DNA of 64,000 bases. Source: Mobula hypostoma (lineage: Eukaryota). The stretch covers positions 111,478,001-111,542,000 of the forward strand of contig NC_086107.1 of the NCBI RefSeq assembly GCF_963921235.1, written 5' to 3'. Below are positions 33,001 to 63,308 of the stretch, in pieces. The notes below the pieces were generated by a model. The model did no database searches, was not told where the DNA came from, and was given only the letters and a program-made list of their open reading frames with translations. Position 1 is the first letter of the stretch; each line of letters starts with the position of its first letter. The position numbers were made by a program, and so were the translations under genes.

Positions 33001-36000
33001 GTCCCTTTGTCAGTGTGACACTCCCTCAGTACTGTCCCTCTGGCAGTGAGGCACTCCCTCCGTACTGTCCCTCCCATAGTGAGACACTCCCTCAGTACTG
33101 TCCCTCTGACAGTGAAGCACTCCCTCAGTACTGTCCCTTTGTCAGTGTGACACTCCCTCAGTACTGTCCCTCTGACAGTGAAGCACTCCCTCAGTACTGT
33201 CCCTTTGTCAGTGTGACACTCCCTCAGTACTTTCCCTCTGACAGTGTGACACTCCCTTAGTACTGTCCCTCTGACAGTGAGACACTCCCTCAGTACTGTC
33301 CATCTGACAGTGAGACGCTCCCTCTGACAGTGAGACACTCCCTCAGTACTGTCCCTCTGACAGTGTGACACTCCCTCAGTACTGTCCCTCTGACAGTGAG
33401 ACACTCCCTCAGTACCGTCCCTCTGGCAGTGAGACACTCCCTCAGTACTCTCCCTCTGAGAGTGAGATGCTCCCTCAGTACTGTCCCTCTAACAGTGCAA
33501 CACTCCCTCGGCACTGTCCCTCTGACAGTGGGACACCCCATCAGTACTGTCCCTCTGACAGTGAAGCACTCCCTCAGTACCGTCCCTTTGTCAATGTGAC
33601 ACTCCCTCAGTACTGTCCCTCTGGCAGTGAGACACTCCCTCAGTACTGTCCCTCTGACAGTGAAGCACTCACTCAGTACTGTCCCTTTGTCAGTGTGAAA
33701 CTCCGTCAGTACTGTCCCTCTGACAGTGAAGCACTCCCTCAGTACTGTCCCTTTGTCAGTGTGACACTCCCTCAGTACTGTCCCTCTGACGGTGAAGCAC
33801 TCCCTCAGTACTGTCCCTTTGTCAGTGTGACACTCCCTCAGTACTGTCCCTCTGACACTGAGGCACTCCCTCAGTACTCTCCCTCTGACAGTGTGACACT
33901 CCCTCAGTACTGTCCCTCTGACAGTGAGACACTCCCTCAGTACTGTCCCTCTGACAATGAAGAACTCCCTCAGTACTGTCCCTCTGGCAGTGAGACACTC
34001 CCTCAGTACTGTCCCTCCCATAGTGAGACACTCCCTCAGTACCGTCCCTCTGATAGTGAAGCACTCACTCAGTACTGTCCCTTTGTCAGTGTGACACTCC
34101 CTCAGTACTGTCCCTCTGGCAGTGAGGCACTCCCTCCGTACTGTCCCTCCCATAGTGAGACACTCCCTCAGTACTGTCCCTCTGACAGTGAAGCACTCCC
34201 TCAGTACTGTCCCTTTGTCAGTGTGACACTCCCTCAGTACTGTCCCTCTGACAGTGAAGCACTCCCTCAGTACTGTCCCTTTGTCAGTGTGACACTCCCT
34301 CAGTACTGTCCCTCTGACAGTGAGACACTNNNNNNNNNNNNNNNNNNNNNNNNNNNNNNNNNNNNNNNNNNNNNNNNNNNNNNNNNNNNNNNNNNNNNNN
34401 NNNNNNNNNNNNNNNNNNNNNNNNNNNNNNNNNNNNNNNNNNNNNNNNNNNNNNNNNNNNNNNNNNNNNNNNNNNNNNNNNNNNNNNNNNNNNNNNNNNN
34501 NNNNNNNNNNNNNNNNNNNNNNNNNNNNNTCCCTCAGTACTGTCCCTTTGTCAGTGTGACACTCCCTCAGTACTGTCCCTCTGACAGTGAGACACTCCCT
34601 CAGTACTGTCCCTCCCATAGTGAGACACTCCTTCAGTACTGTCCCTCTGACAGTGAAGCACTCCCTCAGTACTGTCCCTCCGACAGTGTGACACTCCCTC
34701 AGTACTGTCCCTCTGACAGTGAGATACTCCCTCAGTACCGTCGCTCTGTGAGGCACTCCCTCCGTACTGTCCCTCCCATAGTGAGACACTCCCTCAGTAC
34801 CGTCCCTCTGACACTGTGACACTCCCTCAGTACTGTCCCTCCGACAGTGTGACACTCCCTCAGTACCGTCCCTCTGACAGTGAGACACTCCCACAGTACT
34901 GTCCCTCCGACAGTTTGACACTCCCTCAGTACTGTCCCTCTGACAGTGTGACACTCCCTCAGTACTGTCCCTCCCATAGTGAGACACTCCCTCAGTACCG
35001 TCCCTCTGACAGTGTGACACTCCCTCAGTACAGTCCCTCTGACACTGAGGCACTCCCTCAGTACTGTCCCTCTGACAGTGTGACACTCCCTCAGTACTGT
35101 CCCTCTGACAGTGAGACACTCCCTCAGTACCATCCCTCTGACAGTGAGGCACTCCCTCAGTACCATCCCTCTGACAGTGAGGTACTCCCTCAGTACTGTC
35201 CCTCTGACAGTGAAGCACTCCCTCAGTACTGTCCCTTTGTCAGTGTGACACTCCCTCAGTACTGTCCCTCTGACAGTGAAGCACTCCCTCAGTACTGTCC
35301 CTTTGTCAGTGTGACACACCCTCAGTACTGTCCCTCTGGCAGTGAGACACACCCTCTGTACTGTCCCTCTGACAGTGTGACACTCCCTGAGTACTGTCCC
35401 TCTGACAGTGAGACACTCCCTCAGTACCATCCCTCTGGCAGTGTGACACTCCCTTAGTACTGTCCCTCTGACAGTGAGACACTCCCTCAGTACTGTCCCT
35501 CTGACAGTGAGACGCTCCCTCTGACAGTGAGATACTCCCTCAGTACTGTCCCTCTGACAGTGTGACACTCCCTCAGTACTGTCCCTCTGACAGTGAGACA
35601 CTCCCTCAGTACTCTCCCTCTGACAGTGAGACACTCCCTCATTACCGACCCTCTGGCAGTGAGACACTCCCTCAGTACTCTCCCTCTGACAGTGAGATGC
35701 TCCCTCAGTGCTGTCCCTCTAACAGTGCAACACTCCCTCGGCACTGTCCCTCTGACAGTGGGACACCCCATCAGTACCGTCCCTCTGACAGTGAAGCACT
35801 CCCTCAGTACTGTCCCTTTGTCAGTGTGACACTCCCTCAGTACTGTCCCTCTGGCAGTGAGACACTCCCTCAGTACTGTTTCTCTGACAGTGCAGCACTC
35901 CCTCAGTACTGTCCCTTTGTCAGTGTGACACTCCCTCAATACTGTCCCTCTGGCAGTGAGGCACTCCCTCCGTACTGTCCCTCCCATAGTGAGACACTCC

Positions 36001-57253: not shown

Positions 57254-57634
57254 GGAAAGACGTTAGGACCGGTAAATAGAGAGAGACACACAACTTAGTT
57301 TTCAGTAGGAGGGAAGTGTTGCAAGGATCTGTAGAACAAAGAGATTGTCTATGATAGGACAAGTTCAAGGATCAAGAATCAACTCTATTCACCATACACA
57401 TTTACACGCATTAGGAAGCTGCTGTGGCATGTAAGTACCAACAACAACACATGATATGGAGCAAACTTAGTACACTGGAAACCATCTCCATTAAGCCAGG
57501 AAAAGTCATTGCGGGCACTACCCACCCAGCAAACTGCCTTTTCTGAAAGCTCTCTTCTGAAAAGCTCTATAGAGCCAATAAAATGAAAGCTTTACATCAT
57601 CTTAAAAGTTTTTTCCCCAGGCAGTTAATCTAAT

Positions 57635-57828
57635 GGGGTGTATGGGGTGTCTAGAGAGGGGTAGCACCTGTAGTGTGGGGGTTTGCCGTGCCCTTTTTCA
57701 GGGCAGCTCGTCCACCTCTGGTACCCACCTGGCGCTCAGCTCTCACCTGTGGCTCCAAGTAGCTGTAGCACGCGCAGTGGCCACACCCCGGTAAACCGTC
57801 TCGGCAGACGGGCCAAACCAGGTGAGGG
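57635..57828 (+). ncRNA. HDV-like (nested double pseudoknot) ribozyme, copy 1
   Basis: P1 GGGGTGT 57635-41 / ACACCCC 57783-89; P2 57740-50 / 57817-28; P3 GGC/GCC; L3 TCCAAGT; P1.1 CC/GG 57790-91; P4 CCGTCT/AGACGG; J4/2 G-C-CAA with putative catalytic C at 57,813. Confidence 0.85.
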
Positions 57829-58166
57829 TAGCCGCCGGGTCTTCGACCATCGGTGAGATAGGGGATCTGCCTGTCCCAGCATGTGAAGTCTGGCCATGGC
57901 GGATTGAGCAGAGGAGACCGATTAATGGTCCAACGGTCAGGAAGGCAGGCCAGTGGGCGTTTGTGGAGCGCTAAGAGCACGACAAGGCACTTAGACATCC
58001 TGGTCATCCACTGCAAGAGGTGGTGATCTCTTTAAACTCACCCGGCAGAAGGCAAAGGCAAACCACTGCTGTAACTTGCCACGAACATGATTTCCCAACA
58101 TGTCAGAGTAGCGTGGAGGGAACTCGTCAGCCAACTGGAAATTTCAGATGCGACCTAACGACGACG
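57635..58166 (+). mobile_element. Non-autonomous retroelement with 5' HDV-like ribozyme and RTE-like 3' part (copy 1)
   Basis: Perfect 12-bp TSD AGTTAATCTAAT (57,623-57,634 / 58,167-58,178) and (ACG)n tail. GAAGGCAAAGGCAAACCACT resembles the RTE/Bov-A motif. The 5' 380 nt are colinear with 62,428-62,807. It is inserted in a Rex remnant (KSFFPQAVNLIN). Confidence 0.9.
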
Positions 58167-58779
58167 AGTTAATCTAATCAACCATTCTAGTCAGACCCCC
58201 ACACCCCTCTCTATACATTACATCAATCACTGCACTATGAACTCTTTAAACCATTTTTATAATGCTGTTTACAATATAAATTCATGTTGGTATTTATGTA
58301 TTTATTCCATATATGTATTGGCACAACAAAAGACAACATTCAATAATTATAAGGAGTACAGAATTATTCAGAAATAAGTTAGGGGTTAAAGTACAGAAAT
58401 TGGAATAAATGCATAAATATCAGCCACTTTTAGTCCTCCTAATTTCATCCTTAAAGATCTCTTCCATTTTCTTCAAGATCCCCTGGGTAACAGTCTTGTT
58501 CCTCAGACTTGTGCTGGGTCTTGAAACCTTGCAGAAGACCACAGAGAGAGTGGAAGTGGGATAACGGCCATCAAACAGAGCCAGGGTCACTCCCGCCGGC
58601 TGAGAGAAGGTGCTGCGTGAAACTATCACCCAGTTCACATCTGGTTCCCAACGTAGCGGAGGCCTCATTGTAAATATCAAATGCAGTACAGCACTACAGA
58701 TCCCCTACACTTCTGAATGAGCCCTCATACCTCAAATCTGACATATGGACATACTTTCGTCCTTAAAGACGGCAGAACT

Positions 58780-62000: not shown

Positions 62001-62427
62001 ATTATTCAGTCCTTCCTCCACATTGTCAAATGCAAGCTGTCAGTTACGGAGATCAAACAGTTCCAAACTGCATTAATGCACTTTAAAGAAGTGATTGAGT
62101 AACTGGGGCTGATAATCAGGCCTCACACGCAATCTGCTTCTTGTTTAGGAAGCTCCACAATTGCTTGCAAATATCTACGTGTGCATACTGGGTAAGCTAT
62201 CCAAGACCTTTTATAGAAAACAATTAGCTTTATTTCCTCTTCAAAAAGACTCCAAATTAGATTAACTTTATTTGTCCCATGTAAATGAAACATAGAAGCA
62301 TACAGTGAAATGGGTCAAGATTTAGGTTTATTTTGCACATTTACATCAAAACATACAGAAAAGTGCGTTGTTTGTGTTGAAAACCAACATAACTAAGTGT
62401 TGTGCGTTCAATATTTCAATACTATTT

Positions 62428-62621
62428 GGGGTGTATGGAGTGTCAGGGAGGGGTAGCACCTCTGGTGGGGGAACATGTCGCGTCCTTTTCAGGGCGGTTA
62501 GTCCACCTTTGGTCCCCACCTGGCACTCAGCTCTCACCTGTGGCTCCCCGTAGCTATTTGCATACGACAGCGGCCACACCCCGGGCAACGGCTTCGACAA
62601 GCCGGCTAAACCAGGTGAGGG
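62428..62621 (+). ncRNA. HDV-like ribozyme, copy 2
   Basis: P1 GGGGTGT 62428-34 / ACACCCC 62576-82; P2 62531-41 / 62610-21; P3 GGC/GCC; L3 TCCCCGT; P1.1 GG 62583-84 then GCAA; P4 CGGCTT/AAGCCG; J4/2 G-C-TAA with putative catalytic C at 62,606. Confidence 0.88.
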
Positions 62622-62985
62622 TAGCCGACGGGTCTCAAACCCTCGGTGAGATAGGGAGTTGTCTATCCCAGCATGTGAAGACAGACTCCGGCGGATTGAG
62701 CGGACGAGACCTATAGAAGGTCCAACGGTCAAGAAGGCGGTCTCTGCAAGCGTTGTGGAACGTGTAGAGCACGACAAGACACGGAAGACGTCCTGATCAT
62801 CCACTGCGCCTAGTCCCATCTCCAGCCATCTCGACTCTGTCTTGCCACTGGATCCAGATGGGAATTGGGAAGAGAGAGTGAGGCTGACGCTGCGCATCTC
62901 TCCCTCACTTAAATCCAAATCTCGCGCTAGTCTCGACACCATCAATGGTGTCAAGGTCTTCATCGACGACGACGATGGACGAACA
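62428..62985 (+). mobile_element. Non-autonomous retroelement with 5' HDV-like ribozyme (copy 2, different 3' module)
   Basis: TSD ACTATTT (62,421-27 / 62,986-92), (GAC)n-type tail, and 5' 380 nt homologous to 57,635-58,014. Confidence 0.88.
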
Positions 62986-63044
62986 ACTATTTGTGTGATA
63001 TCATAAACTTATTGTTTGATTAAGCATTTTTTATAATAATAAAA

Positions 63045-63308
63045 TCACACCGTGGGTTGGCAATGTTTTACAGTGCAGGTGACCCGGGTTCAATTCCCAA
63101 TACTGCCTGCAGGGAGTTTGTACGTTCTCCCCGTGACCGCGCGGGTTTCCTCCGGGTGCTGCACAGTGCAAAAGCGCACCGGTTGGTAGGTTACTTGGTC
63201 GTTGTAAATTTTCCTGTGATTGGGCTGGGGCTAAATCGGAGATTGCTGGGTGCCGTGGCGCGAAGGGCCAGAAGGATCTATTCCACGTTTTTATCTCAAT
63301 TAAATAAG
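63045..63308 (+). mobile_element. tRNA-derived V-SINE (HE1-like), decayed
   Basis: B box GGTTCAATTCC at 63,087-63,097, V-domain-like GGAGTTTGTACGTTCTCCCCGTGACCGCGCGGGTTTCCTCCGGGTGCT, and an A-rich end. Confidence 0.8.

Follow-up and report, generated by a model that had tools for sequence, protein, structure and literature searches.

A candidate HDV-like ribozyme at the 5' end of a dispersed non-LTR retroelement family in the ray Mobula hypostoma

Does a short dispersed repeat of a vertebrate genome begin with a self-cleaving ribozyme, and does this ribozyme set its 5' end? The question is raised by a 532-bp element at positions 57635..58166 (+ strand) of a 64,000-nt stretch of Mobula hypostoma DNA (RefSeq assembly GCF_963921235.1, contig NC_086107.1, positions 111,478,001 to 111,542,000, forward strand), hereafter the window. 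According to a first-pass annotation, the element opens with a fold of the class of ribozymes resembling that of hepatitis delta virus (HDV), and the predicted cleavage site is its first base. At a probability of roughly 65%, judged from sequence comparison and structure modelling, we regard the head of this element as a functional HDV-like ribozyme that would set the 5' end of a promoter-less, non-autonomous element of the kind that lacks long terminal repeats (non-LTR).

Two copies of the element lie in the window. Copy 1, named above, represents subfamily sf1, and copy 2 (62428..62985, + strand) represents a younger subfamily, sf2, with the same head and a different tail, ending in ...GATGGACGAACA. 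The first 380 nt of the two copies are 79% identical, and their 3' parts are unlike. An older type, sf3 (~555 bp), was recovered using a divergent head as query.

The predicted fold and its conservation

With 57635 counted as nt 1, all parts of the HDV fold named in the first-pass annotation were found in the stated order within the first 195 nt, and the positions of P1, P2, P3, L3, P1.1, P4, and J4/2 were confirmed (all on the + strand). The nested double pseudoknot order, P1, P2, P3, P1.1, and P4, is the canonical one. The 5' strand of P1 (GGGGTGT, 57635-57641, nt 1-7) pairs with ACACCCC at 57783-57789 (nt 149-155), and cleavage is predicted 5' of G57635. P2 is formed by 57739..57749 (nt 105-115) and 57819..57829 (nt 185-195); its inner part is 57742-57749/57819-57826, and it can be extended to 11 bp, comprising 9 Watson-Crick and 2 G.U pairs, with 97.4% of alignment cells paired. 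P3 consists of GGC at 57751..57753 (nt 117-119) and GCC at 57780..57782 (nt 146-148), with 98.1% of cells paired. The 3' strand of P1 directly abuts this GCC, which is also the arrangement described for the HDV-like class, where the P1 3' strand directly follows P3/L3 and cleavage takes place at the first nucleotide of P1 (PMC3774820, PMC4908430).

The L3 core, UCCAAGU (57754..57760, nt 120-126), supplies the U and G of the predicted reverse wobble and the CC of P1.1; only its two middle bases vary (AA, CC, and AA), the U, CC, G, and U being the same in every subfamily consensus. P1.1 pairs this CC (57755-57756, C121 and C122) with GG at 57790-57791 (G157 and G156, respectively) and is also invariant in the consensuses. 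It is followed by J1.1/4 (nt 158-161), by the P4 hairpin CCGTCT/AGACGG (57796-57801/57806-57811, nt 162-167/172-177), and by J4/2, G-C-C-A-A-A-C (57812..57818), in which the candidate catalytic base C57813 (C179) is followed by N-A-A. The string G-C-N-A-A-A is invariant across the three consensuses except for N (C, T, and T).

Two features were absent from the first-pass annotation, namely, a G-C pair at the cleavage site, considered below, and an extra hairpin in L3. The latter occupies 19 nt (57761..57779, nt 127-145) and has the stem GCUG/CAGY, 97.5% paired, with a loop that differs among subfamilies. According to local minimum free energy (MFE) folding, the inserted helix is stacked on P3 in 3 of 4 natural copies (L001, L004, and L078), leaving CCAAGUA as a 7-nt bulge, and in L054 this stretch is paired differently. 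An alternative P3, GGCU/AGCU, whose loop would have 6 nt and whose J3/1 would have 18 nt, may also form, with the local MFE again preferring the stacked form in those 3 copies. In the cited passages on HDV-like ribozymes, J1/2 and P4 are the only parts said to vary in length (PMC4836649, PMC3774820).

The 97-nt J1/2 (57642..57738, nt 8-104) is predicted to form a rod on the basis of MFE folds and pairing counts. In 5 natural copies it folds into a rod of 95-97 nt with energies of -39 to -54 kcal/mol. The closing helix begins 3 nt after P1, ends 1 nt before P2, and uses the second GGGGTGT (57644-57650), which the first-pass annotation had considered as a possible competitor for P1; this does not appear to be its main role. 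Since RNAalifold on J1/2 alone gave a poor consensus, the rod model was taken from a single-copy MFE fold. In the alignment A2 described below, 93.8% of 2244 rod cells are paired, compared with 38-56% when the strands are slid, and 3 pairs show double changes at the subfamily level (GC 52/AU 14, GC 39/AU 28, and UA 41/CG 26). Activation of large HDV-like ribozymes by long J1/2 domains with a structure of their own has been reported (PMC4908430), and in R2 elements J1/2 ranges from 23 to >700 nt and P4 is variable (PMC3774820).

Because individual copies decay neutrally, the informative comparison is that between subfamily consensuses, effectively 3 lineages. The core was defined as 54 positions, comprising P1, P2, P3, the fixed L3 bases, P1.1, and J4/2 except its N. 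Between the sf1 and sf2 consensuses all 54 of these are identical, compared with 257 of 332 positions (77%) in the rest of the head (Fisher p = 4e-6), and the sf3 consensus agrees with both at the core positions. The three differ in J1/2 and P4, in J1.1/4, in the N of J4/2, and within L3 in the middle bases of the core and the loop of the inserted hairpin; these are the positions where HDV-like ribozymes tolerate change. Downstream of the fold, the remainder of the 380-nt head (57830..58016, + strand) is common to all three subfamilies, and there the consensuses of sf1 and sf2 are 75.7% identical.

Pairing was counted in alignment A2, which holds 72 copies starting at most 5 nt from nt 1 of the element. 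Copies whose match starts at nt 4 or later were left out (L006, L007, and L013 of sf1; L034 and L049 of sf2; L062, L067, L069, and L080 of sf3). Of 2337 cells, 95.0% keep the 33 proposed pairs intact; shifting the 3' partners by 1-3 columns lowers this share to 33-48%. Cells with double changes number 85, compared with 25.5 +/- 5.1 in shuffles, none of 500 shuffles reaching 85. P4 reads CCGTCT/AGACGG in sf1, CGGCTT/AAGCCG in sf2, and CCGCTT/AGGCGG in sf3, so that 3 pairs are altered on both sides, with counts of CG 30/GC 25, CG 39/UA 25, and UA 29/CG 25/UG 15. RNAalifold on the 72-copy alignment recovered P4 and missed the pseudoknot. A possible compensatory change in P1, where pair 4 of L061 is C-G, is absent in two other copies sharing the 3' change and was not counted.

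The chance of such an arrangement was estimated with a permissive descriptor. It calls for a P1 of 7 bp starting from the tested base, a P3 of 3 bp, a P4 of at least 4 bp, C-N-A-A, a P2 of at least 5 bp, and an L3 of 6-35 nt with U first and bases 2-3 pairing with the two bases after the P1 3' strand. Over every start on both strands of the window it matches only 57635, 57644, and 62428, all within the two copies. Anchored at nt 1, it is matched by 3 of 20,000 sequences obtained from the first 230 nt by dinucleotide shuffling. Thus, the HDV-like arrangement is more than chance, although these figures lose some weight because the descriptor was drawn up with the element already in view. The first-pass annotation had called for a search with HDV-like models; this descriptor picked out both copies and nothing else in the window, and the covariance models of Rfam gave no match.

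Family 5' ends, copies, and tails

Copy 1 is flanked by a target-site duplication (TSD), with AGTTAATCTAAT at 57623..57634 (+ strand) recurring as a perfect 12-bp direct repeat at 58167..58178 (+ strand), so the G of P1 is indeed the first base after the 5' repeat, as had been noted. Copy 2 is flanked by the direct repeat ACTATTT (62421-62427 and 62986-62992). The same coincidence of P1 and element start, which the first-pass annotation had proposed to verify by aligning genomic copies, holds for the family. The assembly (3.48 Gb in 200 contigs) yielded 4493 first-look candidates with copy 1 as query and 4227 with copy 2, and the best 40 of each were scored. Among these, 29/40 and 30/40, respectively, start at query nt 1, and the worst starts at nt 9.

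A direct repeat of at least 10 nt with at most 1 mismatch was found between the 5' and 3' flanks in 35 of 60 flank-bearing copies, and in 33 of the 35 the repeat stops no more than 1 nt short of G1 and no more than 3 nt past it. The two outliers are a copy truncated by 8 nt (L013) and a spurious match (L007). Overlaps of 1-3 nt between the TSD and the GGGG of the element are not resolvable and suggest microhomology joining. When 81 upstream flanks were compared, collinear sharing reached the junction only at a locus that is duplicated (L073/L074), and in run X11 likeness is lost just before 57635 in 60 contigs. Taken together, the 5' ends, flanks, and contigs indicate that homology never extends upstream of the P1 G in the copies examined.

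Sites without the insertion are also seen. Copy 1 is inserted within another dispersed repeat (57520-57634 and 58179-58240), and an uninterrupted paralogue of this host repeat, found in the last ~200 bases of locus L084, represents an empty site. Contigs of other sequencing runs that jump from ~57615 to ~58167, i.e., without copy 1, also represent empty sites. Logan contigs of four sequencing data sets all cover the element, hence related copies are present in those data sets; the summed depth is highest in the bin 57735-57759, which corresponds to the P2/P3/L3 core.

The element is identified as retroposed by the non-LTR route, i.e., by target-primed reverse transcription (TPRT), from its many dispersed copies, its variable TSDs (7-15 bp), its 5' truncations, and a defined 3' end that carries a tail of short repeats. 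When 150 nt upstream of 40 tail matches were inspected, 34 matches entered the expected body, 5 were 5'-truncated, and 1 was internally deleted (L103). Judging by the candidate counts, the family is one of thousands of copies in at least three subfamilies. The best 40 of the 4493 copy 1 candidates have identities of 90-92%. The median distance from the consensus among the best-scoring 30 copies is 5.6% for sf1 (532 bp) and 1.8% for sf2 (~562 bp), and the latter value points to recent activity.

Neither a box A nor a box B of RNA polymerase III (Pol III) was found in the element within 1 mismatch, the sense frames are interrupted by stops, and no protein family is matched, which bears out the earlier description of it as non-autonomous and free of Pol III boxes and open reading frames (ORFs). 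The Pol III small-RNA head with boxes that defines a canonical short interspersed element (SINE) is therefore lacking, and we infer that the element is promoter-less. A T5 run occurs at nt 60-64 of copy 1 and a T4 run at nt 59-62 of copy 2. In the sf2 consensus an antisense open frame of 186 aa runs the full length of the element (62430-62987, - strand); it is kept in 19 of 30 copies, is absent from sf1, matches no Pfam family, and is taken as compositional.

The tails differ among the subfamilies. The tail module of sf1 (58017..58166, + strand) contains a 3' hairpin, CTGGAAATTTCAG, followed by ...CGACCTAACGACGACG, and across sf1 copies the hairpin is followed by ...CGACCTAACG(ACG)n. The 3' end of sf2 is ...GATGGACGAAC(AAC)n or (CAAC)n, and that of sf3 is ...GATGGACAACC(ACC)n; sf2 and sf3 align along their entire length. 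A tRNA-derived SINE at L013:1060-1300, having a tRNA-like head with the box-B-like GAGTTCAAATCC, ends in ~120 nt (L013:1174-1299) that are 79.5% identical to nt 400-519 of the sf1 tail. This SINE and sf1 seem to have a tail module in common and, presumably, a partner long interspersed element (LINE) as well. Since the sf1 tail recurs behind a tRNA-like head, sf1 gives the impression of the common head having acquired its tail from another SINE/LINE system. Joined to at least two unrelated tails, the 380-nt head would act as a SINE head does, supplying an RNA end rather than a promoter.

Regex scans for the tail motifs across the sequence gathered gave nothing new. A weak tail-like match in L011 turned out to belong to another ~250-bp repeat family (L011:2570-2821, 3887 first-look candidates), which has a ~45-nt motif (…GAAGGCAATGGCAAACCACT…) in common with the tails of sf1 and the tRNA-derived SINE. 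The tails themselves may resemble 3' domains of the RTE/BovB type.

One locus joins a copy of the head to a reverse transcriptase (RT). There, a divergent head at L061:1-235(-) leads via a 14-15-nt microhomology into a 397-aa RT ORF (L036 3401-2208, minus strand). The composite (L061:1-235(-) plus L036:2208-3562(-)) opens with nt 1-282 of the head, partly duplicates head nt ~180-228, and continues with 397 aa from the C terminus of the RT, a 3' untranslated region (UTR) with an sf2 copy inserted in it, and (TATGAC)n. The RT family has the Pfam domains RVT_1 and ALKBH8_N, is assigned to Chordata, and is presumably CR1/Rex1-like. This LINE gave 464,602 first-look candidates, of which 104 matches were scored, and its tail is ...AATAAAGTATGAC(TATGAC)n. 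Stop-free ORFs in the family reach 1007 aa (copy G000:C96:28160443-28163466, L082 and L083), and one copy with the 1007-aa ORF has no ribozyme head within 2.7 kb upstream. Owing to the (TATGAC)n tail and to this headless copy, the L036/L061 RT was rejected as the partner, and the locus is read as a chimera formed at the microhomology. The first-pass annotation had suggested an RTE-type RT; no partner LINE, of that type or another, was found among the matches inspected.

Weighing the readings

If the head is a ribozyme, the following course may be proposed. A copy lying in a transcribed region would be read through by a host polymerase; the element lacks Pol III boxes and has an internal T4-5 run. 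In the transcript the 97-nt J1/2 rod would bring P1 and P2 together, C57813 would serve as the catalytic base, and the RNA would cut itself just 5' of G57635, making G1 the 5' end of the template. The 3' hairpin and the (ACG)n, (AAC)n, or (ACC)n tail would then be recognized in trans by the RT of a putative partner LINE, and TPRT would leave the 7-15-bp TSDs and the occasional 5' truncation seen in the sequence, with 5' joining aided by the G-run.

Several observations weigh against this reading. The total length of L3 is 26-28 nt (26 in copy 1), compared with about 7-8 nt in the HDV-like class, as the 19-nt hairpin sits between the 7-nt core and the 3' strand of P3. The cleavage-site pair is G1-C in all three consensuses and in 49 of 71 distinct copies, with G.U in only 6 decayed copies; in HDV and CPEB3 this pair is a G.U wobble. 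J1.1/4 has 4 nt versus 0-2 in R2 (PMC3774820). At the gathering threshold Rfam reports no ribozyme or other small-RNA family in the whole window, and at E up to 10 it reports no family, HDV-type or other, in 57500-58300 and in four loci with the older, sf3-type head, although such a miss is expected if the L3 insertion and the long J1/2 break the models. The effective covariation rests on just three subfamily lineages, the core set and the descriptor were both chosen once the fold had been seen, the copies studied are the best-scoring ones and are thus biased toward intact and full-length elements, and no LINE bearing this head or these tails was found, with 0 of the best 40 tail matches entering a LINE. 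Finally, a fixed transcription start would lead one to expect equally sharp 5' ends. As for the L3 insertion, the matching position in the genomic HDV ribozyme, U27, is dispensable, which would make an insertion there plausible.

A rival reading takes the head as a structured 5' domain, for instance an internal Pol II promoter or a fold that binds the RT or stabilizes the RNA, with G1 as the transcription start and a non-catalytic HDV-like arrangement. It predicts sharp 5' ends and a covarying conserved structure just as well as a ribozyme does, it is favored by three departures from known active ribozymes, namely, the inserted L3 hairpin, a G-C pair at the cleavage site, and the absence of an Rfam match, and in L1Tc a single 5' segment is both promoter and ribozyme (PMC3383444). 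What it leaves without account is why the invariant positions are those that define the HDV fold (the U, CC, and G of L3, the GG of P1.1, C-N-A-A, and the P1 3' strand after P3) while the tolerated ones vary, and why a seven-part descriptor is matched exactly at nt 1, a coincidence seen in 3 of 20,000 shuffles. We consider a purely structural head unlikely. Still less probable is a decayed relic, whose ancestor cleaved and whose present masters are disabled by the L3 insertion or the G-C pair, the fold persisting by inertia. The atypical L3 and cleavage-site pair would fit such a history, but the core is invariant in three subfamilies that differ by ~20-25% elsewhere, one of them as young as 1.8% from its consensus, and in P4 and J1/2 the compensatory changes point to selection that has gone on.

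A different matter is the origin of the head, which could be the 5' UTR ribozyme of a parent LINE retained in an internally deleted, bipartite derivative of the SIDE kind and mobilized by the same parent, so that no head shuffling took place. This explanation is compatible with the ribozyme reading and differs from it only on origin. Bipartite non-autonomous LINEs that keep the 5' end are on record for RTE, Ingi, and R2, and their 5' ribozyme has been put forward as the explanation (PMC5786205; for SIDEs, PMC3414825), sf2 and sf3 can be aligned over their full length, and the L036/L061 locus does join a head to an RT ORF. It is a possibility of some substance, yet the odds lean against it, given that the search turned up no LINE with the head or the tails, 0 of 40 tail matches running into one, that the RT family of that locus has a headless copy with the 1007-aa ORF and its own (TATGAC)n tail, and that the sf1 tail is common to a tRNA-derived SINE.

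Beyond the functional ribozyme itself, a broader proposal may be made, for which we would put the chances slightly short of even. According to it, the element would represent a structurally new HDV-like subclass, with L3 opened and capped by a helix and a G-C cleavage pair, whose portable head has recombined with LINE-type tails to give a recently active class of ribozyme-headed SINEs in this vertebrate and its relatives, invisible to standard models. Judged from the literature alone, three features appear to be new, namely, a fold variant with a helix in L3, a family of this size and youth in a chordate genome, and the exchange of tails under one head.

Relation to known systems

HDV-like ribozymes process the 5' ends of LINEs of the R2, R4, R1, RTE, LOA, and Ingi clades (PMC5786205). 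Among non-autonomous elements, SIDEs (PMC3414825) and NARTc (PMC3383444) retain the ribozyme, and RTE-derived bipartite non-autonomous LINEs occur in vertebrates (PMC5786205). All of these being already published, the principle is not new, and the ribozyme-headed strategy is known from insects and trypanosomes. The cited part of a review reports intergenic HDV-like copies, in the hundreds, whose downstream sequence is conserved while the upstream sequence varies, and mentions some LINEs and SINEs that use HDV-like ribozymes (PMC6765202). In the literature searched, a 24-nt core string of the present family was not found, a 14-nt tail motif occurred only in an unrelated context, and no paper found names the family; likewise, no literature linking HDV-like ribozymes with vertebrate Rex1/CR1 elements was found.

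R2 SIDEs are similar in being non-coding and in retaining a 5' HDV-like ribozyme and a 3' end recognized by the RT (PMC3414825, PMC3774820). R2 and SIDEs are also freed from a co-transcript when the RNA cuts itself at its first base or close to it, which is predicted here, and they have a long J1/2 and a variable P4 (PMC3774820). In contrast, R2 and its SIDEs are confined to 28S ribosomal DNA and are co-transcribed with ribosomal RNA, whereas the ray family is dispersed, with varied TSDs, thousands of copies, short-repeat tails, and the L3 hairpin. L1Tc and NARTc of Trypanosoma cruzi are likewise a dispersed non-LTR element and its non-autonomous partner that start with an HDV-like ribozyme (PMC3383444, PMC3185411). 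The L1Tc ribozyme, however, is minimal (77 nt), also serves as a promoter, and operates in a protist with polycistronic transcription (PMC3383444, PMC3185411), compared with ~195 nt, a rod-like J1/2, and a chordate host in the present case.

The vertebrate elements RTESINE2 and WALLSI3 are short, combine a LINE 5' end with a LINE 3' end, and a 5' self-cleaving ribozyme has been proposed to explain why the former is retained (PMC5786205). Schistosoma has ribozyme-bearing SINE-like or non-LTR elements with hammerhead and twister-variant motifs (PMC6765202, PMC8501958), which differ in ribozyme class and in the Pol III transcription of tandem copies. With respect to the fold, HDV and CPEB3 have in common with the ray element the nested double pseudoknot, the U...G and CC of L3, the 2-bp P1.1, and the C followed by N-A-A in J4/2; the ray element departs from both in the G-C rather than G.U pair at the cleavage site, the 19-nt L3 helix, and the 97-nt J1/2.

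If the fold cleaves, the HDV motif would have to be redefined so as to admit an L3 helix, and such ribozymes would be escaping both the curated models and the standard descriptors. The family would then be a high-copy, recently active vertebrate short retroelement that relies on read-through and self-cleavage rather than on a Pol III promoter, with a ribozyme head exchangeable among LINE-type tails in the way SINE heads are, and the head would be a compact natural module that defines a 5' end and has a built-in activating J1/2 rod. Should the family already be present in Dfam or Repbase, the value of these results reduces to a structural annotation of its head.

Two other features of the window were noted. 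A 200-nt run of N at 34330-34529 represents an assembly gap or a masked stretch. Just 3' of copy 2, at 63060-63100, lies a tRNA-like, box-B-like stretch (…GACCCGGGTTCAATTCCC…) that is probably another SINE.

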